Shown here piece after piece: positions 2,932 through 59,968 of a stretch of DNA of 64,000 nucleotides. Within the stretch, counting starts at the first letter, position 1, and every line of letters starts with the position of its first letter. Made by a program: the position numbers and the translations under genes. The stretch lies in IMG/VR virus record IMGVR_UViG_3300027792_000010; one strand, 5' to 3'. The stretch comes from a virus. The notes beneath the pieces are model-generated. The model was not told where the DNA came from and made no database searches. It saw nothing but the letters and a program-made list of their open reading frames with translations.

Positions 2932-3040
2932 CGGAGGGTGAGGGATTTGAACCCCCAAACCCGTAAGGGTGACGGTTTTCGCCGGAACATCTCATGGGTG
3001 TGCCGACAAGACCGTTGACTTACCATTAGCCTAACCCTCC
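2932..3040 (-). tRNA. tRNA-Ser(UGA) with 27-nt insertion in the anticodon (2980-3006)
   Basis: GGAGGGT acceptor, G73, long V arm; removing 27 nt restores ACGGT-CTTGAAA-ACCGT. Confidence 0.85.
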
Positions 3041-3138
3041 GATTATTGAGTCGGAACCGACCACCGAGGTAAACCTCGCCACCAGGGAGTTGGTCCATTT
3101 CTGGAATGATAGCTTTTTTAACGCCCTGCCGACTCCTT

Positions 3139-3576
3139 TTAAACTTTCTCCCAACTCTCTACTACACCTTCAATAGATTTAAAGATAGGGTTTACATCAG
3201 GTACCCCTATATTTTGTATTTTTTGCAATCTATCTGGATCTCTTATCTTCAATTTACTTTTAAGATGGTCAAACTCATACAGAATTTGCCCAGTAGATAC
3301 GGTTATCACACTGCTTTCTTTCACTATCCTCTTTATAACTATTTTATCTACACTATATCTGTATCCCCTTTTTTTAGCTTCATCGTATATGGTATATAGG
3401 TAGTTACAGATAGTATACACAGGATCTGAAGTCTTTTTGAACCTCTCAAGCTGCGGGTGATTTTTATATCCCACGGTTCTACTCAGTAATACATCCTGAG
3501 CTAGAAGTCCCTCTCTCCAGCAAGCTGTTAATCCCTTAACATCCAGATACTTTGGGTGTATACTCCATAGCCTCAT
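3139..3576 (-). CDS. pyrimidine-dimer DNA glycosylase / endonuclease V family
   Basis: MRLWSIHPKYLD...WREGLLAQ...GYKNHPQLERF signature. Confidence 0.88.
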   Translation of the reverse strand: MRLWSIHPKYLDVKGLTACWREGLLAQDVLLSRTVGYKNHPQLERFKKTSDPVYTICNYLYTIYDEAKKRGYRYSVDKIVIKRIVKESSVITVSTGQILYEFDHLKSKLKIRDPDRLQKIQNIGVPDVNPIFKSIEGVVESWEKV

Positions 3577-3957
3577 TTATTTTTCAATCTCCATGCGCCA
3601 GTAAACTATTGGAAGTAATTCTTTTTCTATAGTCCCTAATTCTTTTGGCAGCTGCTCCAAGGATATATCATACATAAGATACTTTAATTTTCTATGAAAG
3701 TCCACACTTGTTTTTGTACTTACTTGTATAGTCTGACCCCTGACTATAACTTTCGAAGTTTTACCAAAGTCAGAAAAGGTTACGTTATCATCAATGACTA
3801 TTTCTGAGATATCTATTAGATATCTCTGGAAGTCCTCATTATCGAACTGCACATGCGTGAGTACTTTTACAAGATTATTCAATTTACTTTCTTCAAGTAT
3901 AGGAATAAGTTTTTTAAAATTTTCTTTAGTGTAGTAAGTAGATATAACTATTTCCAT
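3577..3957 (-). CDS. hypothetical protein
   Basis: ORF track; AGGAG RBS. Confidence 0.65.
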   Translation of the reverse strand: MEIVISTYYTKENFKKLIPILEESKLNNLVKVLTHVQFDNEDFQRYLIDISEIVIDDNVTFSDFGKTSKVIVRGQTIQVSTKTSVDFHRKLKYLMYDISLEQLPKELGTIEKELLPIVYWRMEIEK

Positions 3958-4037
3958 AACAACTCCTTCAGTGGTAACATATTATTAAGTACATAAATCT
4001 GTTGTATATAACAACTATACTGCATGCGCATTAATCT

Positions 4038-4247
4038 CTACCTTGTTACTGCCGAAGTAGCAGTCTCAGTTTTGATGTATTCTATTTCTTCAGGAACGTT
4101 AGTAGTTCCTGTTATAACTACGTTTTTGAGGCAGTTAGTACATTCAAAAACATAGGCTCGAACTCCTATTGCAGTAGGGTAACTTGCTGTTTTCTTCATA
4201 GTACCCTTTTTGCAGGTCATACATGAGTCATTGATCCTAATCGCCAT
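4038..4247 (-). CDS. small zinc-ribbon protein
   Basis: CxxC...CxxC pairs (CMTC, CTNC). Confidence 0.6.
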   Translation of the reverse strand: MAIRINDSCMTCKKGTMKKTASYPTAIGVRAYVFECTNCLKNVVITGTTNVPEEIEYIKTETATSAVTR

Positions 4248-4250
4248 TAT

Positions 4251-4706
4251 TTACCCCTTGGAAAGCTTATCTCTGACTATTTGGTTTATTGTTTTTCCGT
4301 CTGCTCTACCTTTAACAATAGATAAAATCTTACTCATCACCATACCCATTTGTTTAATAGATACGGGCTCAGATATTGATATAACCGTATCAATAATTTG
4401 AGATAGTTCTTCTTCGGTAAGAGGAGTTGGTAGGTAGGACTTATATACCTTTACCTCGTATTCATTAATATCAACCAAATCTTGTCTTGATGCTTTCTTA
4501 AACATCTCTGAAGCATCTTCTCGTTGTTTAATACACCTGGAGATAACAGTAATAGCCATATCGTCTGAAACTTCTTTTCGATTTTTGATAACTTCATTCT
4601 GGATCTCTGAATCGAGAAGACGAAGACAAGAAACTTTAGATGATTCACGGGCTTTCATTGCAGCCTTAATGTCATCCCTAATTTTGATGTAAATATCTGA
4701 AGCCAT
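4251..4706 (-). CDS. yqeY: GatB/YqeY domain protein
   Basis: IKAAMKA...KQREDASEMF...E...YLP..LTEEEL..II...MGMVM...GRADG pattern. Confidence 0.9.
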   Translation of the reverse strand: MASDIYIKIRDDIKAAMKARESSKVSCLRLLDSEIQNEVIKNRKEVSDDMAITVISRCIKQREDASEMFKKASRQDLVDINEYEVKVYKSYLPTPLTEEELSQIIDTVISISEPVSIKQMGMVMSKILSIVKGRADGKTINQIVRDKLSKG

Positions 4707-4728
4707 AAAAGTCCCTTTCTGTAATTAA

Positions 4729-4760
4729 TTATAATATACTTTTTACCAATTTAATTTTAA
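4729..4760 (-). promoter_or_regulatory. recurrent sigma70-like promoter TT(G)NNN-N17-TATATT with AAAAAG just before the -10; copies near 4735, 6405, 11618, 15219, 27785, 34341, 38047, 47093, 50475, 53590
   Basis: Motif AAAAAGTATATT repeated in intergenic gaps; TTGATA, TTGATC or TTGCTA found 17 nt upstream in the copies at 11618, 15219, 47093 and 53590. Confidence 0.8.
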
Positions 4761-4867
4761 AGAAAATTATTATGAATTACTTTTAATAATAAATATTTGA
4801 TAATCTACTAATTAAAGCGGTAAAATATGGGTAAATCTATAACTGCAACTATAGGAGTACAGGCATC

Positions 4868-5677
4868 ATGTGGGTCTTCTTAGCAAATCTCAATCCGTGG
4901 CTTTCTTACAGTCTTCTTGTCTTATGTTTAATAGCACTAGTAGTTATCTCTTTAAGAGGTAAACTTTTTGTGCAGTGGGATAAAGACAAGGTTATAGGAG
5001 TAGGTAGAGGCAGTAAAAAGGATGAAAAAGAATTAGAATCCTCGAATAAAAAGGGGGACCCTGTTAGTAGACACCCAGATACGTATATAGTCCCTAGCTG
5101 CTCTGATTGTATACTCCTTGTATTAGGGATGAGGGAGAAGGCTCAGATGGCTATGGATAAAGTAGAAAATCATATATTGAAAAATCAGATGAACTTTTGT
5201 GAACAAAAGCTTGCCGAATTAACATCTCTAATACTTAATGAATTTTCTAAAGTCATTGGTAATAAGGAGGCTATAATAAGTGAAGCTCTCCGATATGAGA
5301 TTGTTAGGGCATTACTGTCAGAGATCATAGAAAGACTTAAATCTGAGATAAGAAGGTCATTTAAAGAGAATGGCTTCTATGAGTTCGGGGATGGAGAATT
5401 CTCTAATTACGTAAATAATAGATATGACTATCTGGCTACAATCTCTGACCAGCACTATAGCAACAGGTATCTTGCCTATAGTTCTATCCTACCCTTTGAT
5501 TTGATAAGTGGAATTTTTGATAATAATAAGGACAAAATATACTCTATAGTAAGGGAAATATATACAATATCTAAGAGTATAAAAGCAAAAGCTAACGAAG
5601 ATATGGAAGAAGAAAAGAAAGCTTTTGCTGAAGAAGTTAGATCATTCGTAAAATCAAGAGGAGCACCAATATACTAA
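4868..5677 (+). CDS. membrane-anchored hypothetical protein; the only convincing plus-strand gene
   Basis: 269 aa, N-terminal hydrophobic helix, AGGAG RBS, occupies a gap free of minus-strand ORFs. Confidence 0.8.
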   Translation: MWVFLANLNPWLSYSLLVLCLIALVVISLRGKLFVQWDKDKVIGVGRGSKKDEKELESSNKKGDPVSRHPDTYIVPSCSDCILLVLGMREKAQMAMDKVENHILKNQMNFCEQKLAELTSLILNEFSKVIGNKEAIISEALRYEIVRALLSEIIERLKSEIRRSFKENGFYEFGDGEFSNYVNNRYDYLATISDQHYSNRYLAYSSILPFDLISGIFDNNKDKIYSIVREIYTISKSIKAKANEDMEEEKKAFAEEVRSFVKSRGAPIY

Positions 5678-5730
5678 GCCTATGAAAGGGTTATTTTTCC
5701 ATCTTAGATACATAATAAAAATAACCCAAT

Positions 5731-6360
5731 TTAATCTTTTCCAGCAATAAGATTTTCCCAGTTTGGAAGGCGCTCAGTAAACTTGAAGAATGTAGCCCAC
5801 TCTTCTGACTTCTGAGTCTTTCTGGCAAGGTACATACCTCGGATAGCTTGATAAGACACCATAACAGTAGCTCCTAGTAATCTACCAGAAGGCATTCTTT
5901 TTTTTATTCGACGAAGTATCTTAGTCTTTGTACTGGTATCAGCTTTTTGGTACTGACCGATAAGACTATTTAGGTCTGAGATAATATTTTGAAAACTTTC
6001 TCGGTCATCATCGTCTTCATCTACAAAATCTTTTATAGTCAAAGGTCTATCAAAAGACTCCTCATCTACAGGATCTGTTATAACCTCTACACCAGTTCTA
6101 TAGGATTTGAACTCTAACCACCAATGCCTTGGACCTATGATATCTGCATAGACCAGAATAAAACGATTGAATTTACTCTTATCAGGGCCTGCTTTCACAA
6201 AGGTCTTCATGATAGCAAGTTCATTTTTGGTGGGTTGGTATCCTTCAGCAAATGATAAAGCTTGGTTGTCATCCCCTAAATTAGAGTTATGAAATCTACG
6301 AAGACCTCTAAGCGCATGCTGAGTACCGTACACAGCTACATTTGTAATTAATAGTGACAT
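5731..6360 (-). CDS. ThyX/Thy1-like phage protein (divergent)
   Basis: NVAVYGTQHALRGLR and YADIIGPRHWWLEF resemble phage Thy1-like proteins; catalytic motif not evident. Confidence 0.5.
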   Translation of the reverse strand: MSLLITNVAVYGTQHALRGLRRFHNSNLGDDNQALSFAEGYQPTKNELAIMKTFVKAGPDKSKFNRFILVYADIIGPRHWWLEFKSYRTGVEVITDPVDEESFDRPLTIKDFVDEDDDDRESFQNIISDLNSLIGQYQKADTSTKTKILRRIKKRMPSGRLLGATVMVSYQAIRGMYLARKTQKSEEWATFFKFTERLPNWENLIAGKD

Positions 6361-6434
6361 TTCATCCTCTGGTGTATTAGTTCTTTCATGTCCCTTAATA
6401 ACTTAATATACTTTTTGGAAGATAGAATTGAAAG

Positions 6435-8456
6435 CTAATCCTTCTTTTTAGAGTAAGATTTCTTTTTGAACTCCATAGGAGTCCCGTCTATGTTGAACAT
6501 CTGGCGACAGGCCGGGAATTTTGAGCAACCTCCAAACTCTTTACCCGTCTTTGTACTTACTCGTATAGCTATCTTAGCTCCGCATTTATTACACTTTACT
6601 CCATCCAGATATCTTACTTCTTTTTTAGCTATAGGTTGTTTATCCTCACCTATCTGGAACATTGCTTTACATTGGTCTTTTCCTTTAAGGATAAAACCCG
6701 AGCATCCGTAAAATTCTCCAAATTTACTTCTTTTTATAGATAGCTTGTTTCTACCGCAGGTAGGACATACTATGTCTGTTTCAACATTATGTTTGGAACT
6801 TTTACTACTACTTGCCGTATCTAACCTCTTTTTTAGTTCCGTATAAAAGTCACCTACAGTATCGTACCATACCAATTTTCCTTCTGCTATCTCATCTAAC
6901 TTATCTTCTATACGAGCTGTGTATCCTATATCCATAAGCTCTGGAAAAGCACCAACAAGATACTCACATACTATATTACCTAGGTCTGTAGGTTTAAAAG
7001 CCTTACCTTCCCTTGTAACATATGTCCGTAGCGTAAGAGTGTCTATGATACTAGCGTAAGTAGAAGGACGACCTACTCCAGACTCTTCAAGAGTTTTCAC
7101 TAATGAAGCGTCATTAAAAGCCGCTGGAGGTTTGGTAAAGTGCTGTTCCGGGACTACCTCAGTTAGATTAGTATTCTCTTTTTCATGCATCTCCGGCAAT
7201 TCCTCATCTTTCGTATTAGCATAAGGCCATGCTTTAAGGAATCCATCAAATACTATCTTCTGACCGTTAGCCACAAAAAGATGCTTTCCGCTGTTAGATT
7301 GTACTGTTACTTTCCCTGCATCAAATATGGCATCTGCCATCTGACACGAAACAAACTTATAGTATATCGCCTCATAGAGCTTATACTGGTCAGTATCCAA
7401 AGAATTTCTATAGTTAGATAGAGGTTCATCTATATGAGATGGCCTTATACCTTCATGAGCTTCTTGGGCTGACTTATTTTTAGTTTTGTAGAATCGAGGT
7501 TGTGCAGGAAGGTACTTCTGTCCAAAAGCTGATGGGATAAAAGCCCTCACGGAGTCCATGGCTTCCTTACTGATATTTGTGGAGTCCGTTCTGTGGTATG
7601 TAATACACCCTGCCTCATAGAGACTCTGAGCCACGCTCATTGTCTTCTTCCCAGGCCATCCAAAGTTAGTAGCGCAGAATTGCTGCATTGTTGAGGTAGT
7701 AAATAAAGGAGTTGGTTTGCGTATCTTCTCATTCTTTTCGAGAGAGGCGATCTTCCATCCTGATTCTTTATTTATACTCTGTACAAGATTCTCTGATTGA
7801 GTACTATTAGTTATCTTATCTTTAGAACTATACATAGCAGTAAATGGTTTATTTCTTACTGTTTTAAATAGTCCTGTTATATCCCAGTATTCCTCTGGTA
7901 CAAAAGAATCTATTTCCTTCTGCCTATCTACTATAAGTTTCAAGCCTATAGACTGAACTCTACCAGCACTAGTACCTTTCATTACTTTACGCCATAGTAT
8001 CGGTGATACACTATACCCGACTAGTCTATCAAGTACGGCTCTAGCTTGCTGAGAGTGGTACATAGGTTCATTTAGAGTTGTGGCGTTATTGAATGCCCCT
8101 AAGACAGCCGATTTGGTAATTTCATGGAAGGTTACTCTTTTTATCGGAGCACCATTCTTAACAATAAACTTTGCAATATGCCATCCTATGGCCTCTCCCT
8201 CTCTGTCTGGGTCGGAAGCTATATATACTGTTGAACAGGATTTCACAGCATCCTTGAGTTCTTGGATTACTTTTGACTTTTTTAAAGCCGGAACATACTT
8301 AGGTTCAAAGTTATTATCGATATCGATAGAGGTACCTTTTGGGTCTATTTGGAAACAGTGCCCGAAAGAAGCTTTCACTATATAGCCAGAACCTAAAAAA
8401 CCTTGTATCTTATTTACTTTTGCTGGACTTTCGACTATTACTAGACTTTTTCCCAT
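6435..8456 (-). CDS. topA: DNA topoisomerase I (type IA) with C-terminal zinc ribbons
   Basis: LVIVESPAK, ASDPDREGE, SAGRVQS, ITYHRTDS, GVGRPSTYA. Confidence 0.97.
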   Translation of the reverse strand: MGKSLVIVESPAKVNKIQGFLGSGYIVKASFGHCFQIDPKGTSIDIDNNFEPKYVPALKKSKVIQELKDAVKSCSTVYIASDPDREGEAIGWHIAKFIVKNGAPIKRVTFHEITKSAVLGAFNNATTLNEPMYHSQQARAVLDRLVGYSVSPILWRKVMKGTSAGRVQSIGLKLIVDRQKEIDSFVPEEYWDITGLFKTVRNKPFTAMYSSKDKITNSTQSENLVQSINKESGWKIASLEKNEKIRKPTPLFTTSTMQQFCATNFGWPGKKTMSVAQSLYEAGCITYHRTDSTNISKEAMDSVRAFIPSAFGQKYLPAQPRFYKTKNKSAQEAHEGIRPSHIDEPLSNYRNSLDTDQYKLYEAIYYKFVSCQMADAIFDAGKVTVQSNSGKHLFVANGQKIVFDGFLKAWPYANTKDEELPEMHEKENTNLTEVVPEQHFTKPPAAFNDASLVKTLEESGVGRPSTYASIIDTLTLRTYVTREGKAFKPTDLGNIVCEYLVGAFPELMDIGYTARIEDKLDEIAEGKLVWYDTVGDFYTELKKRLDTASSSKSSKHNVETDIVCPTCGRNKLSIKRSKFGEFYGCSGFILKGKDQCKAMFQIGEDKQPIAKKEVRYLDGVKCNKCGAKIAIRVSTKTGKEFGGCSKFPACRQMFNIDGTPMEFKKKSYSKKKD

Positions 8457-8520
8457 ATTTCTCTTTTCTCAAAGGTGTCCTTAAATATACCTTCTGGGCA
8501 AATAAAATTAAAGAAAGAAT

Positions 8521-8595
8521 TGGGGTGAGTAGTCGGTATCGACCCGGCTCTAATGGTTTCACAGACCATCGTGCTACCTTTACACTATACTCACC
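8521..8595 (-). tRNA. tRNA-His(GUG)
   Basis: Encoded G-1:C73 pair, loop CTGTGAA, CCA encoded. Confidence 0.95.
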
Positions 8596-8806
8596 GTAAT
8601 CTGTTTTTATTACCCCATGTATCTGTTTGAGTATGGCAGTTAGGGCATAACATTATTATGTTTTCCAATTTATTATTTTTTTATTTCCATCTTTATGATG
8701 CAGCTGAATAGCTATTTCTATACCATTCCACGAAACTATATTACAATTTTCACACTTATTTGATTTGTAACCATATTCTATAAGTTTATTCTTAAATTTA
8801 TAATTA

Positions 8807-9037
8807 TTACTTATTTGAATACCTATCCGAATACCAATCTAATCTCTTAATAACTTCATCTCTATACTCTGGTCCATAAATATCTCCGACCGAGGTGCTG
8901 ACTCGTTCTCTGGTAGTTTTATATTTCCACTTATGTTTTACTGAAGCATCGTAGAAATGGGTCCAACTTACCATCATGTTATTTTTCTTCAATATCTCCA
9001 GGATATACTCAAGAGGTATACCTAAAATTGAAGACAT
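8807..9037 (-). CDS. hypothetical protein
   Basis: ORF track; GGAG RBS. Confidence 0.6.
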   Translation of the reverse strand: MSSILGIPLEYILEILKKNNMMVSWTHFYDASVKHKWKYKTTRERVSTSVGDIYGPEYRDEVIKRLDWYSDRYSNK

Positions 9038-9187
9038 AGGCTCAAAGACTCCTGATACGATCAGCTTACCATCATCAGTTTCACCTACAACTGTTAAGGT
9101 AACAGTACTCCGTTTGCTTTTAGCATGGGGGTGTCTCCTTTTCTATTTATATTACAAGTTTTTCATATGGATTACAATTATTTTAAA

Positions 9188-9271
9188 CAAGTGCGGAGGG
9201 ACTCGAACCCCCACAGACTCAAAGAGTCACGGTTTTGGAGACCGCTGAACTACCTATTATTCTACGCACTT
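9188..9271 (-). tRNA. tRNA-Trp(CCA) with long variable arm
   Basis: A1-U72, G73, loop CTCCAAA, 16-nt variable region GACTC-TTT-GAGTC. Confidence 0.9.
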
Positions 9272-9552
9272 ATGTTTATTTTCATGTATGTCATGTACAC
9301 TATAGACAATTGTGGTAATTTTTTCTGCTTGATTCAATATTGATATTAATCTTTGTTTTATCTTTTCGTCAGTGGCAGATAGAAGTAATAGTTCAGCATT
9401 TCCGATGATACAGCATAGAGCGTTACAGATATCATGATGTTCTTTCATGATTAACCCCCTCATTAGATGTTAGTAGAGTCACATAGGGGTATTATATGGG
9501 TCTGCGTATAATAGTATTAAATAAATTAATGTATTATTATAAAGTAAAGAAA

Positions 9553-9636
9553 TGGTGTCCGAGGAGGGACTCCAACCCCCATGCCATAAGCGGCAGGGCT
9601 TAAACCTGCTGTGTCTAGCAATTCCACCACTCGGAC
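9553..9636 (-). tRNA. tRNA-Leu(UAA)
   Basis: Class II cloverleaf, loop TTTAAGC, CCA encoded. Confidence 0.92.
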
Positions 9637-9643
9637 AAATATA

Positions 9644-9755
9644 TGGTGGTAGAGAGAGGATTTGAACCTCTGTACCCCGAAGGGAGCGGATTTGCTAAGT
9701 TCACCGCTCGGATGAACTTAACAGTCCGCCGCTTTTTCCACTCAGCCACTCTACC
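9644..9755 (-). tRNA. tRNA-Tyr(GUA) with 27-nt insertion in the anticodon (9694-9720)
   Basis: Tyr-type body (G1-C72, A73, V arm CCC-TTCG-GGG); removing 27 nt restores GCGGA-CTGTAAA-TCCGC. Confidence 0.85.
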
Positions 9756-11037: not shown

Positions 11038-11151
11038 TCAAGTTTTCCCACCCACCACTATATTATTACAGAGTAAATATGACAATAACCATGCGGCTGC
11101 TGTATGCAGCTTGGTCATTGTCGAACATAGTGTAGAATGGACTTTTTTCAT
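11038..11151 (-). CDS. attenuator leader peptide 1 (37 aa) MKKVHSTLCSTMTKLHTAAAWLLSYLLCNNIVVGGKT
   Basis: Lies between promoter 11180-11208 and terminator; contains antiterminator TGGGTGGG (11047-11054). Confidence 0.85.
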   Translation of the reverse strand: MKKVHSTLCSTMTKLHTAAAWLLSYLLCNNIVVGGKT

Positions 11152-23571: not shown

Positions 23572-23621
23572 ATATAATTTGCCTTTGTAATTCTCTTACA
23601 TCAGATAGGCTATATTAAAAT

Positions 23622-23657
23622 AAAAAAGCCCCCGAACTTCTCAGTCCGGGGGCTTTT
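23622..23657 (-). terminator. attenuator 2 intrinsic terminator
   Basis: AAAAGCCCCCGGAC...GTTCGGGGGCTTTTTT. Confidence 0.92.
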
Positions 23658-23680
23658 ATAAGCTACTTGTTTACCCGGAC

Positions 23681-23758
23681 CTATACAATACTATCAAACA
23701 TACTATCAAAACTGATAGTATCGCTGTTGATGATAATGCTGAAAGTAGAGGTACACAT
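23681..23758 (-). CDS. attenuator leader peptide 2 (25 aa) MCTSTFSIIINSDTISFDSMFDSIV
   Basis: AAGGA RBS; antiterminator GTCCGGG (23674-23680) directly after the TAG. Confidence 0.88.
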   Translation of the reverse strand: MCTSTFSIIINSDTISFDSMFDSIV

Positions 23759-25088: not shown

Positions 25089-25870
25089 ACTGTTTTTACT
25101 TTCACTTTATAGGTTTTGTAGAAATCTCTGGTGATATTATGAAACTCTTCCGGTAGTAATTCTACAGTTTTTTGAGCAATATCTTTAGGGATTTCTTTAT
25201 AGAAAGCCTGAGCTATACCTCCGGCAATACATGCCATAGTATCCGCATCGCCATTAAGTCTTATAGCTTTTTTGATCGCGTCTATAAAGGAATCGGACTC
25301 AAGAAAACAAATGATAGATTCAGGTACTGACCCCTGACACGTCGCATCGAATTTGTAGGTCGGTGCGATATCTACCAGAGTACGATTAAGGTCATATCCA
25401 AAACTTTTTGATATGACTCTCTTAATCTCTTCTTTGGATTTCCCAATGCGTGCCATATAAACTGCTAAAGCTGTAGCTTGAGCACCTTTGATACCTTCTG
25501 GATGACTATGAGTACACTCTGCGCTTTTTTTAGCCTCTTCTAAGACCTTCCTAGGGTTATCAAAAGCATACCCTATAGGACTTACCCTCATGGCAGAACC
25601 ATTGCCAAAACTATTAAAAGGGGCATTAGAAGAAGAATCTAACCAATCTTGAAACATCCCGCCATATCCCCGACCTGGGTATCTATTACCGAAGTCTTTG
25701 TAACACTCACCATAGCTCTTCCCCGTTAGGATGGCTGAGCAGGTAGCGAAAGACATTACAGAGTCATCCGTGTAATCAGTCCCATCTGCAAACAATTCAA
25801 AATCATATACTTCTGTTTTCTTCCATTCATATGCACTCCCGATCACGTCACCTATGCAGGCACCCAGCAT
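25085..25870 (-). CDS. ADP-ribosylglycohydrolase (DraG/ARH family)
   Basis: GACIGDVIG, YTDDS, GNGSAMRVSP, NGDADT; start moved to MLGAC. Confidence 0.92.
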   Translation of the reverse strand: MLGACIGDVIGSAYEWKKTEVYDFELFADGTDYTDDSVMSFATCSAILTGKSYGECYKDFGNRYPGRGYGGMFQDWLDSSSNAPFNSFGNGSAMRVSPIGYAFDNPRKVLEEAKKSAECTHSHPEGIKGAQATALAVYMARIGKSKEEIKRVISKSFGYDLNRTLVDIAPTYKFDATCQGSVPESIICFLESDSFIDAIKKAIRLNGDADTMACIAGGIAQAFYKEIPKDIAQKTVELLPEEFHNITRDFYKTYKVKVKTV

Positions 25871-26802
25871 GATATACCGCCTTTCACTCTTTCTTTTTCG
25901 TATCCCAACCATTCTTTCCACGATATCCAACCTTTATTTAGATATGTACGGCTAGGAAAAGAAGGTATAGTGATTGGTCTACTACCACTTTTACAAAAAC
26001 ATTCCCATTCGGTTTTACTTTGTATATTAAATTTTTTAATATATTCTTTAGCTTCTGAATAGGGCATAAAACCTGTTTTTAAGACTATTATACCTTTTAT
26101 TTTATAAAATTTATTATATTTTCTTAACAATTTTAAGCTACTATCTCTATACATGAAATCTCTTAATAGTATTGAATTATTGTTAGAAAACCTTGTGCTA
26201 TAATAAATGCTGTCTTTAGGTCTTGTATAGTCAAATAACTTTTCACCCTTTTTTCTAACTTTTATGTAAATAATACCGTGTATACCTTTTATGCTACTTT
26301 CTATTGCTTCTAATAATTTATATGCTAACTCTTTGCTCCCTGAAGTGAAATCTGTTTCAAGATTATTATTATCTTTTAGAATGCTCACGCTCCCATCTCC
26401 GTCAAAGTACCCTCTAATAAAGTCTGGTAAATATTCCTGAGGGACTGTTGGAAATCCAATATCTAAACTTTTTCTTTCTTTTCCTCCAAGATTTTTTATA
26501 TCTTCAATTATTTCTTTTGAGTAAATACATATAAAATAATTATTTTTACAAGTTTTCTTTATAGGATGATTAGATTCCATAACTTTTAAAATATTTTCTA
26601 ATATATATTTGTCATTTTTATGCTGGCTTATTCCAAAGCATTCTTTATCTATAAATCCATCGGCCCACCAAAATCCTAAAACATAGGCCATATCTTTAGT
26701 CCAAATTTTAAAAAAATCTTGATTAACGTTATATCTTCTTGCCCCCTGATTCCACTTATTTTTCCAACGTTCCAATTTTTCTGATTGTGCTTCTTTGCTC
26801 AT
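25852..26802 (-). CDS. LAGLIDADG homing-endonuclease-like protein with extra C-terminal domain
   Basis: YVLGFWWADG and FIRGYFDGDG motifs. Confidence 0.85.
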   Translation of the reverse strand: MSKEAQSEKLERWKNKWNQGARRYNVNQDFFKIWTKDMAYVLGFWWADGFIDKECFGISQHKNDKYILENILKVMESNHPIKKTCKNNYFICIYSKEIIEDIKNLGGKERKSLDIGFPTVPQEYLPDFIRGYFDGDGSVSILKDNNNLETDFTSGSKELAYKLLEAIESSIKGIHGIIYIKVRKKGEKLFDYTRPKDSIYYSTRFSNNNSILLRDFMYRDSSLKLLRKYNKFYKIKGIIVLKTGFMPYSEAKEYIKKFNIQSKTEWECFCKSGSRPITIPSFPSRTYLNKGWISWKEWLGYEKERVKGGISCWVPA

Positions 26803-31930: not shown

Positions 31931-33292
31931 CCGTTCTGAAAAACTTATAAAATCTTTGCAAGACTCATGTTTTCTTCCTGCTTCATAGAAACAGCTTCTT
32001 GACCTATACAAGCATCTTGAAGTCTTATACTTTCTCCACAGGCTTTAATTCCCGACGAACTATCGGTATTTTTAAGTTTAATTAATACATACTTTTCAAG
32101 ATTAATAGATGCATTTAAGTCTCTATCTATGACATTTCCACAATCACATATATAAATCCTATCTTCTAAAGTAAGGTCTTCTTTCAAACAACCACAAACA
32201 GAACACGTCTTACTTGAAGGAAAGAACCTATCTACTTTAATTATGGAACCTCCATACCAAGAGGTCTTATAGGTTAGTTGCCTTTTAATTTCATTAAAAG
32301 AAGCATCTCCTATAGCACCTGCAAGTTTATGATTTTTCATCATACCAGAGACGTTTAAATCTTCTAAAACGATGTATCTTGGTTTGGTTTTCGCCAAAAT
32401 ACTTGTCATCTTATGAAGAGTATCTTTTCTTTGACTACTAATTCTTTTATATATCTTTTGTACTTTTAATTTACTCTTTAATCTATTATTACTTGATCTT
32501 TTAGTTTCTTTATCAAACTTTTTACGAGCTAAATCCTTTTGAGCATGAGCTAACTTTTTCTTTGATTTTTTAAGATACTTAGGATTTTCAAATATTTGAC
32601 AATTAGAACATGTAGCTAATGTTTTAATGCCTACATCAACACCTAAAACAGATTCTATTTGGTTTACTGGTTCTGGTATATCTTGTTCTACTTGAACAGA
32701 TATATACCATCTATCAGCTTCTTTGGAGACTGTCATAGAGTTTATTTTAACATCTTTAGTTGTTATATAACCTTTTTCTTTAAGTTTTACATAACCGACT
32801 TTAGGAATATTGATTGTTGAATTAGTTATATAGAACCCAAAGGAAATCCTAAAAGAATCTTTGTCTTTATGTTTTGACTTGAACTTAGGGAAACCTACTT
32901 TTTTACCTTGTTTCAAACCTCTAAAAAAGTTTTTGAAAGCTGTATCTAAATCCCTTAATGCTTCTTGAGGAGCCATTTTGGATATATCATACATCCAATG
33001 ATAATCAGTTTTCTTCTTACTACATAAAATTTTATGTTGATCTATAGCAGTTAAGGTTTTCTTTTCTGACTTATAAAGTTCTATACGTTCATTTAATCCC
33101 CAATTATAAGCAAAACGAGCACATCCAACACTCTTTTCTAAAAGAGTACGTTGTTTATTATTAGGATTAAGTTCTACTTTATATGCTCTATTTATCTTCA
33201 TTTTCTTTATTCTTCTTAGTCATATGACTTCTTCTACCATAAATTTTAGCTGAATAACAAGACATAATAGTTAAGATATCTGTTAGATTCCC
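31931..33292 (-). mobile_element. IS607-family element carrying only tnpB (no tnpA)
   Basis: Left end GGGAATCTAACAG, right end TAAGTTTTTCAGAACGG, GG at both junctions. Confidence 0.75.
31945..33201 (-). CDS. tnpB: RNA-guided endonuclease TnpB
   Basis: RAYKVELNP HTH; RuvC D (GVDVG), E (VLEDL), D (DRDLNA) intact; zinc finger CSVC...CDC. Confidence 0.95.
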   Translation of the reverse strand: MKINRAYKVELNPNNKQRTLLEKSVGCARFAYNWGLNERIELYKSEKKTLTAIDQHKILCSKKKTDYHWMYDISKMAPQEALRDLDTAFKNFFRGLKQGKKVGFPKFKSKHKDKDSFRISFGFYITNSTINIPKVGYVKLKEKGYITTKDVKINSMTVSKEADRWYISVQVEQDIPEPVNQIESVLGVDVGIKTLATCSNCQIFENPKYLKKSKKKLAHAQKDLARKKFDKETKRSSNNRLKSKLKVQKIYKRISSQRKDTLHKMTSILAKTKPRYIVLEDLNVSGMMKNHKLAGAIGDASFNEIKRQLTYKTSWYGGSIIKVDRFFPSSKTCSVCGCLKEDLTLEDRIYICDCGNVIDRDLNASINLEKYVLIKLKNTDSSSGIKACGESIRLQDACIGQEAVSMKQEENMSLAKIL

Positions 33293-34452: not shown

Positions 34453-34537
34453 CTATATGTCTGTTTATTACTCTTAGCTAATCCTTAAAACTATATAATA
34501 ATAAACTTCTTATTGAGAGTTCTATATTAATAAGTTA

Positions 34538-34608
34538 TGCCCCTAATTGGTCTCGAACCAATGACTCCTGTTTTAGAGACAGTTGTTTTACCACTAAACT
34601 ATAAGGGC
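34538..34608 (-). tRNA. amber-suppressor tRNA (anticodon CUA)
   Basis: GCCCTTA/TAGGGGC acceptor, A73, arm (A)CTGT-CTCTAAA-ACAG(G). Confidence 0.85.
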
Positions 34609-34614
34609 ACATAA

Positions 34615-36651: not shown

Positions 36652-37638
36652 TTATAAGTTATTATCCAAATAGCTCATCCAAAATATTCTAGCTTTATTG
36701 GATATAAACGATCCCATCTTTTTAGGATCTATACCATTTTTAATAATGGTATCCTGTTCTTCCTTCATTACATCACTATATACCCACCTTATGTATTCTC
36801 CGGTGGTAGATTTATCCAGAGGATTCCCAAGTTCTTTCATTTTGTCGATGCCTTGCTGCATCCTATTTTCAGTTACAGCATATTCAACAAACTCTTTTAC
36901 ATTTTCTACCTCTTCGGTGTCGATAGAGGCAAGTTTCTTAACTTTACTATTCTGATGCTTCTCACCTTTCACCTTAAAGATATATCTTTTGGTATCATCT
37001 ATATATTCCCAAACTATTCCTTCCCCCAAACCACCTATCCCAAAGTATTTACCCACAGGGCATTCTTCTTCTACTTTTATAGTAAGCTCTACTAGTTTAT
37101 TCTGAGCTATTTCTGGCTTATTGAAGTCTATATCCAGTTCATAGTTCTCAAACTGAAGAATATTGAATATCTTTTTATCCTCATTCTTAAGATGCTTGAA
37201 TTGCTCTATAGGCTTATAGACATCATCTATTCTAATTGCAAAAATTACCCACATGACAGGTAGTTTACTTATAGCTACACATTTTTGTATGCCAGAACCA
37301 CACCACTCTCCATAGATAGCACAACTGTCATTAAATTCTATACCTTCAAAAATCTTGTCTATGTCTCTATTCGTCATGGTAAGCATAAAACGGTAATTAT
37401 CAGATTCTATGCTCAACAACCTATCTTTACTTTGATATTCATAATGTCCATCTTTATATTTAACAATGGCTGAGTTTGTGCCGTGAAGTTTTATGGTCCC
37501 ACGGAACTTTAGAATAGGATAATCAGTCTCATGCCTATAGACAGGAGCACCTGTTTTATCCTCACCTTTATAATCATGGTGAGATTTAACTGCTCTGATA
37601 ACTTCTCTGAATTGTCCTATATCGGTAAATTTTTTCAT
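36652..37638 (-). CDS. ATP-dependent RNA ligase (Rnl2-like)
   Basis: TIKLHGTN (motif I), YGEW, GEGIVW, FKVKGEKH. Confidence 0.85.
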   Translation of the reverse strand: MKKFTDIGQFREVIRAVKSHHDYKGEDKTGAPVYRHETDYPILKFRGTIKLHGTNSAIVKYKDGHYEYQSKDRLLSIESDNYRFMLTMTNRDIDKIFEGIEFNDSCAIYGEWCGSGIQKCVAISKLPVMWVIFAIRIDDVYKPIEQFKHLKNEDKKIFNILQFENYELDIDFNKPEIAQNKLVELTIKVEEECPVGKYFGIGGLGEGIVWEYIDDTKRYIFKVKGEKHQNSKVKKLASIDTEEVENVKEFVEYAVTENRMQQGIDKMKELGNPLDKSTTGEYIRWVYSDVMKEEQDTIIKNGIDPKKMGSFISNKARIFWMSYLDNNL

Positions 37639-38285: not shown

Positions 38286-38296
38286 AGTTATTAAGG

Positions 38297-38380
38297 CTGA
38301 CACGGAGGGACTTGAACCCCCAAGCTCCTTACGGAGCGAACGGTTAACAGCCGTTTTCCTTGCCATTAGGATACGTGTCA
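38297..38380 (-). tRNA. tRNA-Asn(GUU) with long variable arm
   Basis: U1-A72, G73, loop CTGTTAA, 17-nt variable region GCTCC-GTAA-GGAGC. Confidence 0.9.
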
Positions 38381-54823: not shown

Positions 54824-55438
54824 TTATAATAGTTTCTGATAAAGAACTTCATTATCTTTACAATAATTTTTTAGTTTATCTAACCATGCCTGAGTTTTGC
54901 ATTTAAACATTCTCGGCATCTCAAACTTCTTTTCTTTCTTTATTTTACATACCAACCCTTCAAAGGTGATCCCAGGCAACTCACTCTTACGGACCTGCTG
55001 CTCTATCTCACGATTAAAGTTACCCCGGAATAGCAGCTTAGCTATATCCAAATGCCCGAACAGCCTAAGGAAATCATCAGGGCCTAGTATCCCTTGTTTA
55101 TAGGGGCTTACATCTATTAAATTCATTATGTGGGGCTCGTTAACATGCTGACCTGCAAAAGAGTTCGGTCCCCAAAATTCAAAGAAAGCCACAGCACTTT
55201 CATATCTCTGCTTAGTGAAGATATCGCTGAGATCTTTTTCCCAGTTACCTTTTATCAAAGGTATAGCTTCGCCCAGATGAGGATGATCCTCACCGAGGAG
55301 TTGGTGACGAGTCCCGAACTTGTAGAATGCTTTTTTCTTGGACCACTCTACACGGATATTGGACCCATCCAACTTATCAAAACCATAAACCAAGGTACCG
55401 TGCTGTTGGTCACGACTTAGCGATGGATATTCCTTCAT
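54824..55438 (-). CDS. RNA ligase-like nucleotidyltransferase
   Basis: FDKLDGSNIR (KxDG), FFEF, FEGLV, FKCK. Confidence 0.72.
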   Translation of the reverse strand: MKEYPSLSRDQQHGTLVYGFDKLDGSNIRVEWSKKKAFYKFGTRHQLLGEDHPHLGEAIPLIKGNWEKDLSDIFTKQRYESAVAFFEFWGPNSFAGQHVNEPHIMNLIDVSPYKQGILGPDDFLRLFGHLDIAKLLFRGNFNREIEQQVRKSELPGITFEGLVCKIKKEKKFEMPRMFKCKTQAWLDKLKNYCKDNEVLYQKLL

Positions 55439-57267: not shown

Positions 57268-58608
57268 TCAGTTGATACTGTAGTTTGCCCTAATATACAA
57301 CAATGCTTGTTCTTTTGTTGTAACAGTACCTTCCAATTGTTCAGTGTCTACTGCTTCAAGAATCTCTTTGAATTTAGGTCCGGGTTTGAAACCCATAGCA
57401 ATAAGGTCATTACCATCTACCAATCTATCTGGAAGGATGACCTTACCTCCTGGTTCCTCTGCAAAAGAATCCATAGCTTCTTTAACAAACTGCAAATTAT
57501 CTAATCCTCCATGAGAAGACAAACAATCAGCCTTGTGAAGTTGCAAGTGCTCTTCAAATCTATCCATAGCTATAAATCTCTTAAGCGTGGACTTCCTCAT
57601 GTCCCGTATTACACAGAACTTCATATGGTTCTCAATTAGGGAACAAACCCTATCTATAAAATAATTTGAAAACTTCAACCTGGTTAATAGCTCTCTGGCT
57701 ATATGAGAGCCTTTAATATCATGTCCATTGAACACTAACCGACCTTTCCTATCATCCCAAGCTTTAGTAGTGGGCTTTCCCACATCATGCAACAAAGTAG
57801 CCCACAAAAGCTCTGGGGAGGCTTCTTTTGGGAGGTAATTCAAGGTGAGACAGGTGTGTTTACCGACGCACCCTTCTGGATGAAAGTCCACAGGCTGCTC
57901 ACACCCAAACATATCTTGAATTTCTGGCAGGATATGCTTTAGTATACCAAAATGTTCCAAATCCTTAAGAGCTTCTCCTCTGACTTTACTTTGTTCCAAT
58001 ATTTTTGTCAACTCATCTGCTATTCTCTCTACAGATATTTTCTTGATAAGGATACTATTATCCATTATAGCTTTCTCTGTATCGGAGTCCATAGAGAACC
58101 CCAAACGGTGTTTGAACCTTATGGCCCTCATTAATCTTAAGTGGTCTTCCAATATTCTCTCTTCAGGATCACCTATGAACCTAATTAATTTATCTTCTAT
58201 ATCTTTTCTACCGCCTACGTAATCATAGTACTCCTCAAGGGTAGGGTCATAAAAGATACCATTGATAGTGAGGTCTCTCCTGTTAGCATCCTCTTCCATA
58301 GTAGAAAACTCAACACTTGAAGGATGTCTACCATCCAAGTAAATACCTGCGTCTCTTCTAAAAGTAGCGACCTCAAATTGAATCCCATCAAGTATAACAA
58401 TTATTACGCCAAAAGCTTTCCCTACTTCTATATTATTAGGGAACAGTTCCTGAACTTGGTGAGGAAAAGCAGAGGTAGCTATATCATAATCATGCGGCAT
58501 AACACCCATAATTTGGTCACGATTGCAACCGCCAGCAAATACCGCTTGATATCCTGCGCTCTGTAGAATTTTAATAATACCTACAGCAAGTTCTTTTTGC
58601 TTATCCAT
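57268..58608 (-). CDS. cca: CCA tRNA nucleotidyltransferase with HD domain
   Basis: AGGCNRD, HDYDIAT, RRDLTING, DHLRLMRAIRF, LLHDVGK. Confidence 0.93.
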   Translation of the reverse strand: MDKQKELAVGIIKILQSAGYQAVFAGGCNRDQIMGVMPHDYDIATSAFPHQVQELFPNNIEVGKAFGVIIVILDGIQFEVATFRRDAGIYLDGRHPSSVEFSTMEEDANRRDLTINGIFYDPTLEEYYDYVGGRKDIEDKLIRFIGDPEERILEDHLRLMRAIRFKHRLGFSMDSDTEKAIMDNSILIKKISVERIADELTKILEQSKVRGEALKDLEHFGILKHILPEIQDMFGCEQPVDFHPEGCVGKHTCLTLNYLPKEASPELLWATLLHDVGKPTTKAWDDRKGRLVFNGHDIKGSHIARELLTRLKFSNYFIDRVCSLIENHMKFCVIRDMRKSTLKRFIAMDRFEEHLQLHKADCLSSHGGLDNLQFVKEAMDSFAEEPGGKVILPDRLVDGNDLIAMGFKPGPKFKEILEAVDTEQLEGTVTTKEQALLYIRANYSIN

Positions 58609-59386: not shown

Positions 59387-59875
59387 TCAATACCCTAATA
59401 ATAGTAAAGCTTTATCTATGTCTAAATCAGAAAGCCCTATTAAGCTATCTGTTAGTACTAAATGATCTTTTAAATCTCCCAAATCATGATCCTCATCATC
59501 TATTATTATGTACTTACCCTTAAACTTGTTAGACCTTAACCAACTTTTTATTTCATCACTTCTATTATGGCTTATACGATTAGTATTTTTTAGTCTTACA
59601 CCGCAAGGGATCATTCCTATTATTTTATCTATGGGTACTGTTATAGCATCTACTGCAAAAGGATTGACACCATGTATAGCTCCATTTATCCTAAATATAT
59701 CTTTTAGCTTTTCCAATCCTGTTACATCTGACATCCAGCTACTTGTTATTACTAAGTTAGCATCTGTTATATCAATAAGTCTATTTAGTCTTTTTATAGT
59801 ATCTAAATCAAAATATAAATAGTCAGTATTTGCGGTACACAGCACCCCATCAATGTCTAAAAAGATAATATTCAT
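59387..59875 (-). CDS. HAD-family phosphatase (RNA-repair 'Swiss army knife' type)
   Basis: IFLDIDGVL, VITSSW, IIIDDE; start moved off tRNA-Val. Confidence 0.85.
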   Translation of the reverse strand: MNIIFLDIDGVLCTANTDYLYFDLDTIKRLNRLIDITDANLVITSSWMSDVTGLEKLKDIFRINGAIHGVNPFAVDAITVPIDKIIGMIPCGVRLKNTNRISHNRSDEIKSWLRSNKFKGKYIIIDDEDHDLGDLKDHLVLTDSLIGLSDLDIDKALLLLGY

Positions 59876-59895
59876 GTTATCACTTTCTATTTTAA

Positions 59896-59968
59896 TAGGC
59901 TTATTCGGATTCGAACTGAAGACCTCCTGCACGTCGAGCAGGCGCTCTTCCAATTGAGCTATAAGCCC
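59896..59968 (-). tRNA. tRNA-Val(GAC)
   Basis: Loop TCGACGT; one T-stem mismatch. Confidence 0.88.

Follow-up and report, generated by a model that had tools for sequence, protein, structure and literature searches.

We find that two transfer RNA genes of a large uncultured bacteriophage, tRNA-Ser(UGA) and tRNA-Tyr(GUA), are each interrupted in the middle of the anticodon by a 27-nt hairpin. Related phages either lack the insert or, in one Ser gene, carry it with compensating mutations. We analyzed a 64,000-nt stretch (hereafter the window) of the 202-kb phage genome, IMG/VR record IMGVR_UViG_3300027792_000010. The original prediction, that two tRNA genes carry unrelated hairpin insertions of equal length inside the anticodon, is confirmed by our analysis and extended to a relative. 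Its interpretation, an unknown protein-dependent splicing route, is only partly supported: the tRNA identities and the excision register are now backed by uninterrupted orthologs, while splicing itself, the cutting enzyme, joining by the phage ligases and protection from anticodon nucleases remain inferences.

Two interrupted class II tRNA genes

Both genes are on the minus strand, and each matches the Rfam tRNA model RF00005 over its full length (model positions 1-71), well above the threshold of 29 bits. Their parts are as follows.

2932..3040 (-): interrupted tRNA-Ser(UGA) gene, 109 nt, class II, G73, no encoded CCA (44.9 bits)
3007..3040 (-): Ser 5' exon (tRNA bases 1-35, ending CUUG)
2980..3006 (-): 27-nt Ser insert; a 7-bp helix (including U33-A36, U34.G and G35-C), a 1x1 mismatch, then a 3-bp helix and a loop
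2932..2979 (-): Ser 3' exon (starts AAA)
9647..9755 (-): interrupted tRNA-Tyr(GUA) gene, 109 nt, class II, A73, followed by an encoded CCA at 9644-9646 (52.6 bits)
9721..9755 (-): Tyr 5' exon (ends CUGU)
9694..9720 (-): 27-nt Tyr insert; a 13-bp continuous helix that starts at U33-A36 and closes on a 5-nt loop
9647..9693 (-): Tyr 3' exon (starts AAA)

Both matches include a long variable arm and about 30 unaligned bases inside the anticodon loop. The loops are 34 nt, that is, 7 nt plus a 27-nt insert: CUUG + 27 nt + AAA in the Ser gene and CUGU + 27 nt + AAA in the Tyr gene, as originally described. The two inserts are unrelated in sequence and each is single-copy in the window. Default ARAGORN misses both genes; in intron mode it reads the second as Asn(GUU) with a 27-nt intron at 37/38 and mis-models the first. 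The alternative registers that the original prediction listed for the Tyr gene, Asn at 37/38 and Cys at 33/34, are correct, and only 35/36 gives GUA. We make one correction: in the Ser gene the excision site is ambiguous between 34/35 and 35/36, because a G stands at both junctions.

To examine the structure of the precursors, we folded the two window genes and an interrupted Ser gene from a relative (see below). In MFE folds, all three form a cloverleaf with an extended anticodon arm, in which the 5-bp stem is followed by a small internal loop (C32 opposite A37 and A38), U33 pairs with A36, and anticodon bases 34 and 35 pair with the last two bases of the insert. The helix then runs on into the insert, so that the anticodon is hidden. 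The Tyr anticodon arm folds at -23.2 kcal/mol (z = -6.6), with 0 of 200 shuffles folding as well; support is weaker for Ser (z = -1.6 for the arm and z = -2.8 for the whole precursor). A DNA variant in sequencing run X3, 9714 G>A, turns a C-G pair of the Tyr insert into U.G and keeps the pair. However, the antisense strand folds about as well as the sense strand, so that folding energy does not tell RNA-level from DNA-level structure and a DNA-level role for the palindromes is not excluded.

Interrupted and uninterrupted orthologs in related phages

We next used related phage contigs to establish the identity of the two tRNAs. The relative L182, whose topoisomerase is 78% identical, has Cys, Leu, Leu-CAA, Tyr-GUA, Leu-UAA, Trp where the window has Cys, Leu, Leu, Leu-CAA, the interrupted gene, Leu-UAA, Trp. 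The L182 tRNA-Tyr(GUA) is uninterrupted and has an identical anticodon arm. Two other relatives, L179 and L178, carry an uninterrupted tRNA-Ser(UGA) with the loop CUUGAAA downstream of the same DenV-like gene, and L179 also shares the 5' leader. The discriminator bases, A73 for Tyr and G73 for Ser, agree with these assignments.

L182 also carries the Ser gene in interrupted form (L182:15691-15799), with a 27-nt insert at the same place. Between the window and L182 Ser genes all 35 pairs hold in both. Four pairs show double compensatory changes (acceptor 1:72, one in the variable arm and two in the insert helix), and two further pairs of the insert helix show one-sided changes. The insert differs at 11 of 27 bases and the tRNA body at only 8 of 82, and slid-register controls give 0 compensatory pairs. 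Although this covariation rests on only two sequences, it indicates purifying selection on both the tRNA body and the hairpin. The three inserts, which belong to two unrelated families, are all 27 nt. Two other relatives, G001 (258 kb, 38 tRNAs) and L625 (25 tRNAs), have no inserts; G001, which is only about 55% complete, also gave no hit for the Rnl2-like ligase or RNase III.

We also searched more widely. A blastn search of GenBank phages with both regions found no relative, only generic tRNA matches, and IMG/VR scans with the exact anticodon-stem flanks of both genes gave only chance matches. A scan with the topoisomerase protein alone found nothing, and a generic Tyr pattern in IMG/VR returned mainly tRNA-Leu genes whose acceptor stem contains GACTGT. 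A metagenome scan with a pattern that also accepted an absent insert returned at least 119 ordinary bacterial tRNA-Ser(UGA) genes. In genome contigs the Ser pattern found nothing, while the generic Tyr pattern gave 40 hits, none a full-length interrupted tRNA: these were displaced tRNA-Tyr 3' halves beside GIY-YIG cassettes, other partial tRNA-Tyr copies, and chance GACTGT motifs just upstream of ordinary tRNA genes.

Proposed excision of the inserts and alternative explanations

To make a decoding tRNA from either precursor, exactly 27 nt must be removed between positions 35 and 36 and the halves rejoined. Bacteria have no tRNA splicing endonuclease and 27 nt cannot self-splice. Of the six registers that leave a 7-nt loop, the only one with a 2-nt 3' stagger is the one that restores UGA or GUA; this holds in both unrelated insert families, and L182 has the same pairs. 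The helix of 13 bp (Tyr) or 7+3 bp (Ser), stacked on the 5-bp anticodon stem, fits the geometry of an RNase III substrate, that is, about one turn or more of double helix cut on both strands to leave 2-nt 3' overhangs. The hairpins have no T-loop or acceptor-like features, and their 2-nt overhang does not fit the products of RNase P and RNase Z. Based on these data, we propose that the most likely route is a protein endonuclease of RNase III type, from host or phage, that cuts both strands of the helix, followed by sealing of the anticodon loop by one of the phage RNA ligases. We consider this explanation about as likely as not. Our analysis demonstrates the inserts, the tRNA identities, the excision register, the conserved structure and the purifying selection, whereas the occurrence of excision and ligation, the enzymes that would act (cleavage by RNase III among them) and the chemistry of the ends are inferred.

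No other Tyr or Ser(UGA) tRNA lies in the window, and the following features may be relevant.

11038..11151 (-): 37-codon leader ORF ahead of the tRNA block, containing the run Trp-Leu-Leu-Ser(UCA)-Tyr(UAU)-Leu-Leu-Cys, whose codons are read by tRNAs of this block, including the two interrupted ones; a role as an attenuator is inferred
36652..37638 (-): Rnl2-like RNA ligase, a candidate sealing enzyme by inference (PF09414, E 5e-10; phrog_548 RNA ligase over its full length, E 4e-55)
54824..55438 (-): second, shorter ligase-like protein, role inferred (PF09414, E 8.5e-5, below the curated cut-off; phrog_548, E 2.5e-12)
57268..58608 (-): CCA-adding enzyme with an HD domain, needed by the Ser gene, which encodes no CCA (PF01743, PF12627, PF01966)
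59387..59953 (-): HAD phosphatase of the "Swiss Army Knife" RNA-repair type, an inferred candidate end-healing enzyme (PF18143, E 3.7e-22)

The presence of RNA ligases at 36652 and 54824 had been part of the original prediction and is confirmed. However, the ligases are of the Rnl2 type, which prefers nicks in duplex RNA rather than anticodon loops, as established for T4 Rnl2, and a PDB sequence search gave no significant match for either ligase. No RNase III or other RNA endonuclease, including an EndA/Sen-type enzyme, was found by Pfam searches of nearly all ORFs of 90 aa or more in the window. We also looked for spliced RNA in contigs from two metatranscriptome runs, which cover only small parts of the window. 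The one contig over the Ser gene (run X11, 2974-3175) carries the insert and could be precursor or contaminating DNA, none covers the Tyr gene, and no joint across either insert was seen; the 10 odd letters at the end of the X11 contig match nothing in the window. In addition, the inserts come and go between close relatives, as selfish DNA also does.

A first alternative, which we consider possible but unlikely, is that the inserts are spliced by a heal-and-seal route, as in T4 tRNA repair and fungal tRNA splicing. Here a metal-independent endoribonuclease (anticodon-nuclease-like or an unknown phage enzyme) would leave 2',3'-cyclic phosphate and 5'-OH ends, Pnkp-type kinase-phosphatases of the phage would heal them and a ligase would seal. 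The window holds repair-type phosphatases (HAD_SAK_2, a histidine phosphatase, a weak PTP match and the HD domain of the CCA enzyme) and L182 has a Pnkp-like gene. However, no candidate endonuclease was identified, and the exact 2-nt stagger in the functional register of both insert families has no explanation under this route.

A second and more doubtful alternative is that the RNAs are never spliced and serve as non-decoding tRNA-like RNAs, for example as decoys or sponges for host anticodon nucleases or tRNA-binding defence proteins, or as regulators of the tRNA operon. The masked anticodon, the conservation of both body and hairpin and the unspliced sequence in the RNA library are in its favor. 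Conversely, the loop halves flanking the inserts are exactly those of the uninterrupted orthologs, the length and register are exact in two unrelated families, and the operon leader carries UCA and UAU codons although no other Tyr or Ser(UGA) tRNA is in the window.

A third alternative, of nearly the same low likelihood, is that the hairpins are DNA-level objects, either solo remnants or miniature derivatives of selfish elements that insert into tRNA anticodon-loop DNA, or palindromes that break a homing-nuclease site. The interrupted genes would then be casualties or immune alleles, with RNA removal secondary or absent. Besides the sporadic presence of the inserts and the stable antisense fold, we find that in PVC-group bacterial MAGs GIY-YIG nuclease cassettes end with a 29-30-nt double hairpin placed exactly between the GACTGT and AAATC of tRNA-Tyr, that is, at 35/36. 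The full layout of these elements, a small GIY-YIG nuclease gene plus terminal DNA hairpins and a duplicated tRNA part, is present in L592, L598, L619 and other sequences, and LAGLIDADG and TnpB genes are in the window. However, the window has no GIY-YIG gene, no duplicated tRNA part, no hairpin similar in sequence to those of the cassettes and no second copy of either insert. Moreover, the pairs to the fixed anticodon bases use G.U wobbles, which only make sense in RNA, and the interrupted Ser gene has stayed intact, with compensatory changes in its acceptor stem and variable arm, across phages as diverged as the window and L182.

Lastly, conventional introns are contradicted by our tests and very unlikely: although the inserts lie in the anticodon loop and ARAGORN can model the Tyr gene with an intron at 37/38, the resulting Asn(GUU) is contradicted by the Tyr ortholog and A73, the helix is continuous from U33-A36 into the insert in all three precursors with no bulge-helix-bulge (or relaxed hBH) motif of two 3-nt bulges 4 bp apart, no group I (RF00028) or other Rfam match to the inserts was found at the gathering threshold or at E <= 1, 27 nt is far below any known ribozyme core, and the phage is of bacterial type (peptide deformylase, S21 and OmpA domains, a sigma-70 gene in L182 and a class II tRNA-Tyr). 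A hammerhead-like core sought by eye in the Ser insert was not found.

Relation to known tRNA introns and RNA processing

Bacteria are thought to have only self-splicing (group I) tRNA introns and no protein-based tRNA splicing. The tRNA genes described here are of bacterial type, cannot decode unless exactly 27 nt are removed from inside the anticodon, and are kept by selection in diverged phages. If excision is confirmed, it would add a third mechanistic class of tRNA intron, would give phage RNA ligases and repair enzymes a housekeeping role beyond damage repair, and would explain why standard tRNA finders under-count phage tRNAs. Given that the precursors are small and the candidate enzymes are known, the hypothesis is directly testable in vitro. 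A more far-reaching view, which is possible but which we hold only tentatively, is a previously undescribed tRNA splicing pathway in bacteria and their phages, in which anticodon-masking hairpins of about 27-29 nt are measured and excised by a double-strand-specific (RNase III-type) nuclease and the loop is resealed by a phage RNA ligase. This would make phage tRNAs inert until processed and would let the phage time or protect its decoding capacity, for instance against anticodon nucleases or homing nucleases that recognize the uninterrupted sequence.

The closest described case is the "enigmatic" tRNA introns of Lak megaphages (Devoto et al. 2019, PMC6784885), which also interrupt tRNA genes, tRNA-Tyr(GTA) among them, in very large phages of bacteria, have no known splicing route and vary in presence between related genomes. 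However, the Lak Tyr insert in their Table S6 is about 93 nt and was placed just after the anticodon (bases 37-129 by their tRNAscan numbering), and one Lak insert is itself tRNA-like, whereas the inserts here are plain 27-nt hairpins between anticodon bases 35 and 36 that pair with the anticodon. Archaeal and eukaryal tRNA introns, cut at a bulge-helix-bulge motif by the EndA/Sen endonuclease and sealed by RtcB or Trl1, are likewise short, protein-spliced, non-coding inserts in or near the anticodon loop that pair with loop bases and require a ligase; here the position is not 37/38 and the cut would be a 2-nt stagger in a continuous helix. Group I introns in bacterial tRNA genes, for example cyanobacterial tRNA-Leu(UAA), where the anticodon is split, are also sporadically distributed, but they are self-splicing ribozymes of 200 nt or more with a catalytic core (P3-P9). 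The intervening sequences of bacterial 23S/16S rRNA that are removed by RNase III are similarly extra hairpins grafted onto the loop of a stable-RNA helix and excised by a double-strand-specific nuclease, but the rRNA fragments are not rejoined, whereas a tRNA anticodon loop would have to be religated. Finally, in the T4 anticodon-loop repair system (PrrC cut, Pnkp healing, Rnl1 sealing) a phage-encoded RNA ligase and end-healing enzymes act on a broken tRNA anticodon loop. This phage has comparable enzymes, but the T4 system repairs host-inflicted damage and removes nothing, while here 27 nt would be excised as a programmed maturation step.

Two interrupted tRNA genes and their identities

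We first asked whether the two tRNA genes are as the original prediction described them. The window is a tRNA-rich part of a large uncultured phage, on a contig of about 202 kb, in which genes run almost entirely on the minus strand and GC content is about 37%. Default ARAGORN finds 27 tRNAs here and misses both genes. In contrast, Rfam's tRNA model (RF00005) finds each of them as a 109-nt gene with a full-length match, a long variable arm and about 30 unaligned bases in the anticodon loop. Read on the minus strand, both anticodon loops are 34 nt:

2932-3040, minus strand: interrupted tRNA-Ser(UGA), with loop CUUG, a 27-nt insert (3006..2980), then AAA
9647-9755, minus strand: interrupted tRNA-Tyr(GUA), with loop CUGU, a 27-nt insert (9720..9694), then AAA

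The two inserts are unrelated in sequence and each occurs once in the window. The observation of two equal-length inserts within the anticodons is therefore correct as it was made.

Body type alone is a weak guide to the identity of these genes, because this phage also has tRNA-Thr(UGU) (1123-1203), tRNA-Trp(CCA) (9187-9272) and tRNA-Asn(GUU) (38295-38380), all on the minus strand and 81-86 nt long, with base-paired long variable arms that bacteria normally reserve for Leu, Ser and Tyr. In addition, ARAGORN's intron mode reads the second gene as Asn(GUU) with a canonical intron at 37/38. To settle the identities, we turned to related contigs. In the first example, a contig whose topoisomerase is 78% identical (L182) carries the same array order, Cys, Leu, Leu-CAA, Tyr-GUA, Leu-UAA, Trp (its Trp gene is also 86 nt). 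The Tyr gene of L182 is uninterrupted, and its anticodon arm is identical to the exon halves in the window. The second gene is therefore Tyr(GUA), and only excision between positions 35 and 36 restores it. In a second example, two contigs whose DenV-like gene is 82-84% identical carry an uninterrupted tRNA-Ser(UGA) with loop CUUGAAA downstream of that gene, and one of them (L179) shares the 5' leader with the window. For Ser the site is either 34/35 or 35/36, because a G stands at both junctions; by analogy with Tyr we take 35/36.

Conservation and geometry of the hairpins

L182 also carries the ortholog of the Ser gene (L182:15691-15799; RF00005 at 42 bits), with an insert of exactly 27 nt at the same place. 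Relative to the window copy, 11 of 27 insert bases differ but only 8 of 82 body bases. All 35 base pairs of the extended cloverleaf hold in both genes. Four pairs changed on both sides (acceptor 1:72, one variable-arm pair and two pairs of the insert helix) and two more changed on one side and stayed paired, while control registers slid by 1-3 columns give no compensatory pair. For the Tyr insert, a DNA variant in another sample turns a C-G pair into U.G. Although the sample is small, with two sequences for Ser and one polymorphism for Tyr, these data indicate that both the tRNA body and the hairpin are under purifying selection, which argues against decaying pseudogenes.

All three precursors fold at minimum free energy into a cloverleaf with a lengthened anticodon arm. 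This arm consists of the 5-bp stem, an internal loop (C32 opposite A37 and A38) and a helix that begins with U33-A36 and continues with bases 34 and 35 paired to the last two insert bases, one of these two pairs being a G.U wobble in each family. The helix then runs into the insert. In Tyr it is 13 continuous pairs with a 5-nt loop (z = -6.6), and in Ser it is 7 pairs, a conserved C x U mismatch and then 3-4 pairs. Of the six registers that would leave a 7-nt loop, exactly one places the two cuts with a 2-nt 3' stagger across the helix, and in both unrelated families this is the register that restores the anticodon of the orthologs (L182 has the same pairs). This is the product geometry of RNase III-family enzymes, but it is a geometric fit only and not evidence of cleavage.

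To look for direct evidence of splicing, we examined two metatranscriptome runs that cover small parts of the stretch, and found none. One contig covers 2974-3175 with the Ser insert in place, and no contig joins across either insert; however, contigs cannot show rare forms, and DNA may be present in such libraries. The RNA-library contig that covers the unspliced Ser precursor (run X11) leaves the genome sequence at 2974, inside the 3' strand of the anticodon stem, and continues with 10 letters found nowhere in the window, which could reflect a chimera, a variant or an aberrant RNA.

Candidate functions and competing explanations

Gene content offers candidate enzymes for healing and joining, although their roles here are inferred from sequence alone. 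The relevant features of the window are:

11038-11151, minus strand: 37-codon leader ORF ahead of the tRNA block
36652-37638: full-length Rnl2-like RNA ligase
54824-55438: shorter ligase-like protein
elsewhere in the window: a CCA-adding enzyme, a HAD phosphatase of the RNA-repair type and a histidine phosphatase

In addition, L182 encodes a Pnkp-like protein. Conversely, no RNase III or other RNA endonuclease was found among nearly all ORFs of 90 aa or more in the window. The window holds no other Tyr or Ser(UGA) tRNA, and the 37-codon ORF contains the run Trp-Leu-Leu-Ser(UCA)-Tyr(UAU)-Leu-Leu-Cys, in which every codon is read by a tRNA of the block, the two interrupted ones included. This ORF also has two Asn codons, so on its own it does not discriminate Tyr from Asn. 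A second small leader ORF, also rich in codons read by the downstream tRNAs, lies ahead of another tRNA block (23620-23742, minus strand), and this place gives sub-threshold matches to the His and Thr operon leader families.

Based on this data, the inserts are real, conserved in structure and length, and placed where a decoding tRNA can arise only by exact excision at 35/36 and religation; that such excision and religation take place, which enzymes act and any cleavage by RNase III are inferences. The original prediction is partly supported, in its tRNA identities, its 35/36 register and the presence of the RNA ligases, while splicing by an unknown protein-dependent route and joining by the phage ligases are not shown. 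We consider it likely that these are introns spliced by some protein route. Taken by itself, a direct cut-and-seal route is about as likely as not, its specific form, an RNase III-type cut followed by sealing with a phage ligase, remains tentative, and a heal-and-seal route is less probable. An unspliced, tRNA-like role is unlikely.

A mainly DNA-level selfish or immunity element is, in our view, similarly unlikely but worth keeping. While scanning bacterial genomes we found GIY-YIG nuclease cassettes in Kiritimatiellia and Verrucomicrobia MAGs (contigs L592:2039-2400, L598, L619 with three tandem copies, L620, L622, L624 and L587). In these, an 89-aa GIY-YIG nuclease gene ends at GACTGT and is followed by a 29-30-nt double hairpin and then by the displaced 3' half of tRNA-Tyr from A36 on, such that the hairpin sits exactly between the GACTGT and AAATC of tRNA-Tyr, the same 35/36 junction. 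This is a selfish element that targets the anticodon loop. A deletion between repeats in such an element could leave a solo hairpin in a full-length gene, and a hairpin there would also destroy a nuclease recognition site. The phage inserts could therefore have a DNA-level origin or benefit. Against a purely DNA-level reading, there is no sequence similarity to these hairpins, no such nuclease gene and no duplicated tRNA part in the window, the pairs to the fixed anticodon bases use G.U wobbles, and the interrupted Ser gene has been kept intact across diverged phages. Fold energies do not separate the two strands.

Conventional introns are the weakest alternative, given that there are no 3-nt bulges and hence no bulge-helix-bulge motif, that no Rfam family other than tRNA matches either place even at E <= 1, that 27 nt is far too small for a group I core, and that a host splicing endonuclease of the archaeal kind is not expected for a phage of bacterial type (peptide deformylase, ribosomal protein S21 and OmpA domains, a sigma-70 gene in L182 and a class II tRNA-Tyr).

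Distribution of anticodon-loop inserts and neighboring elements

We next examined how general these inserts are. Relatives at 64% topoisomerase identity (a 258-kb IMG/VR record with 38 tRNAs) and at 73% ligase identity (25 tRNAs) have no interrupted tRNA, and the inserts are therefore sporadic. Full-text literature searches found no description of short hairpin inserts inside the anticodon of bacterial-type tRNAs. The nearest are the “enigmatic” introns of Lak megaphages, of which the one examined is about 93 nt and lies after the anticodon.

An IMG/VR contig with no similarity to the window (L426) has, in an 11-tRNA array, a class II tRNA (L426:1845-1955, minus strand) with a Tyr-like anticodon arm and a 34-nt anticodon loop, again 7 + 27 nt. 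It gives Tyr(GUA) if cut at 35/36 or Leu(CAA) if cut at 33/34. Its insert contains a copy of the 5' strand of the anticodon stem and folds differently, such that the anticodon is not buried in the same way. Other IMG/VR phage tRNAs also carry anticodon-loop inserts, with the following lengths according to ARAGORN:

L453:11177-11284: 32 nt
L453:7169-7279: 37 nt
L572:2184-2295, minus strand: 35 nt, a CUA suppressor
L665:18754-18861: 34 nt
L627:9268-9398: 48 nt
L655:3644-3780: 49 nt

None of these showed the 2-nt-stagger geometry in a plausible register, though the L572 result is not meaningful because the stem search took a wrong anchor there (47 nt).

Lastly, the tRNA arrays and their surroundings contain other elements. 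The window has a tRNA with anticodon CUA (amber suppressor; 34537-34609, minus strand) next to tRNA-Gln(CUG), which hints at TAG recoding in part of the genome. A free-standing LAGLIDADG endonuclease-like ORF (25852-26802, minus strand) overlaps the end of an ADP-ribosylglycohydrolase gene. The window also encodes a TnpB-like (OrfB_IS605) gene (31945-33201, minus strand), and the tRNA array of L182 contains a HEARO RNA followed by an RRXRR protein (L182:9339-9566).
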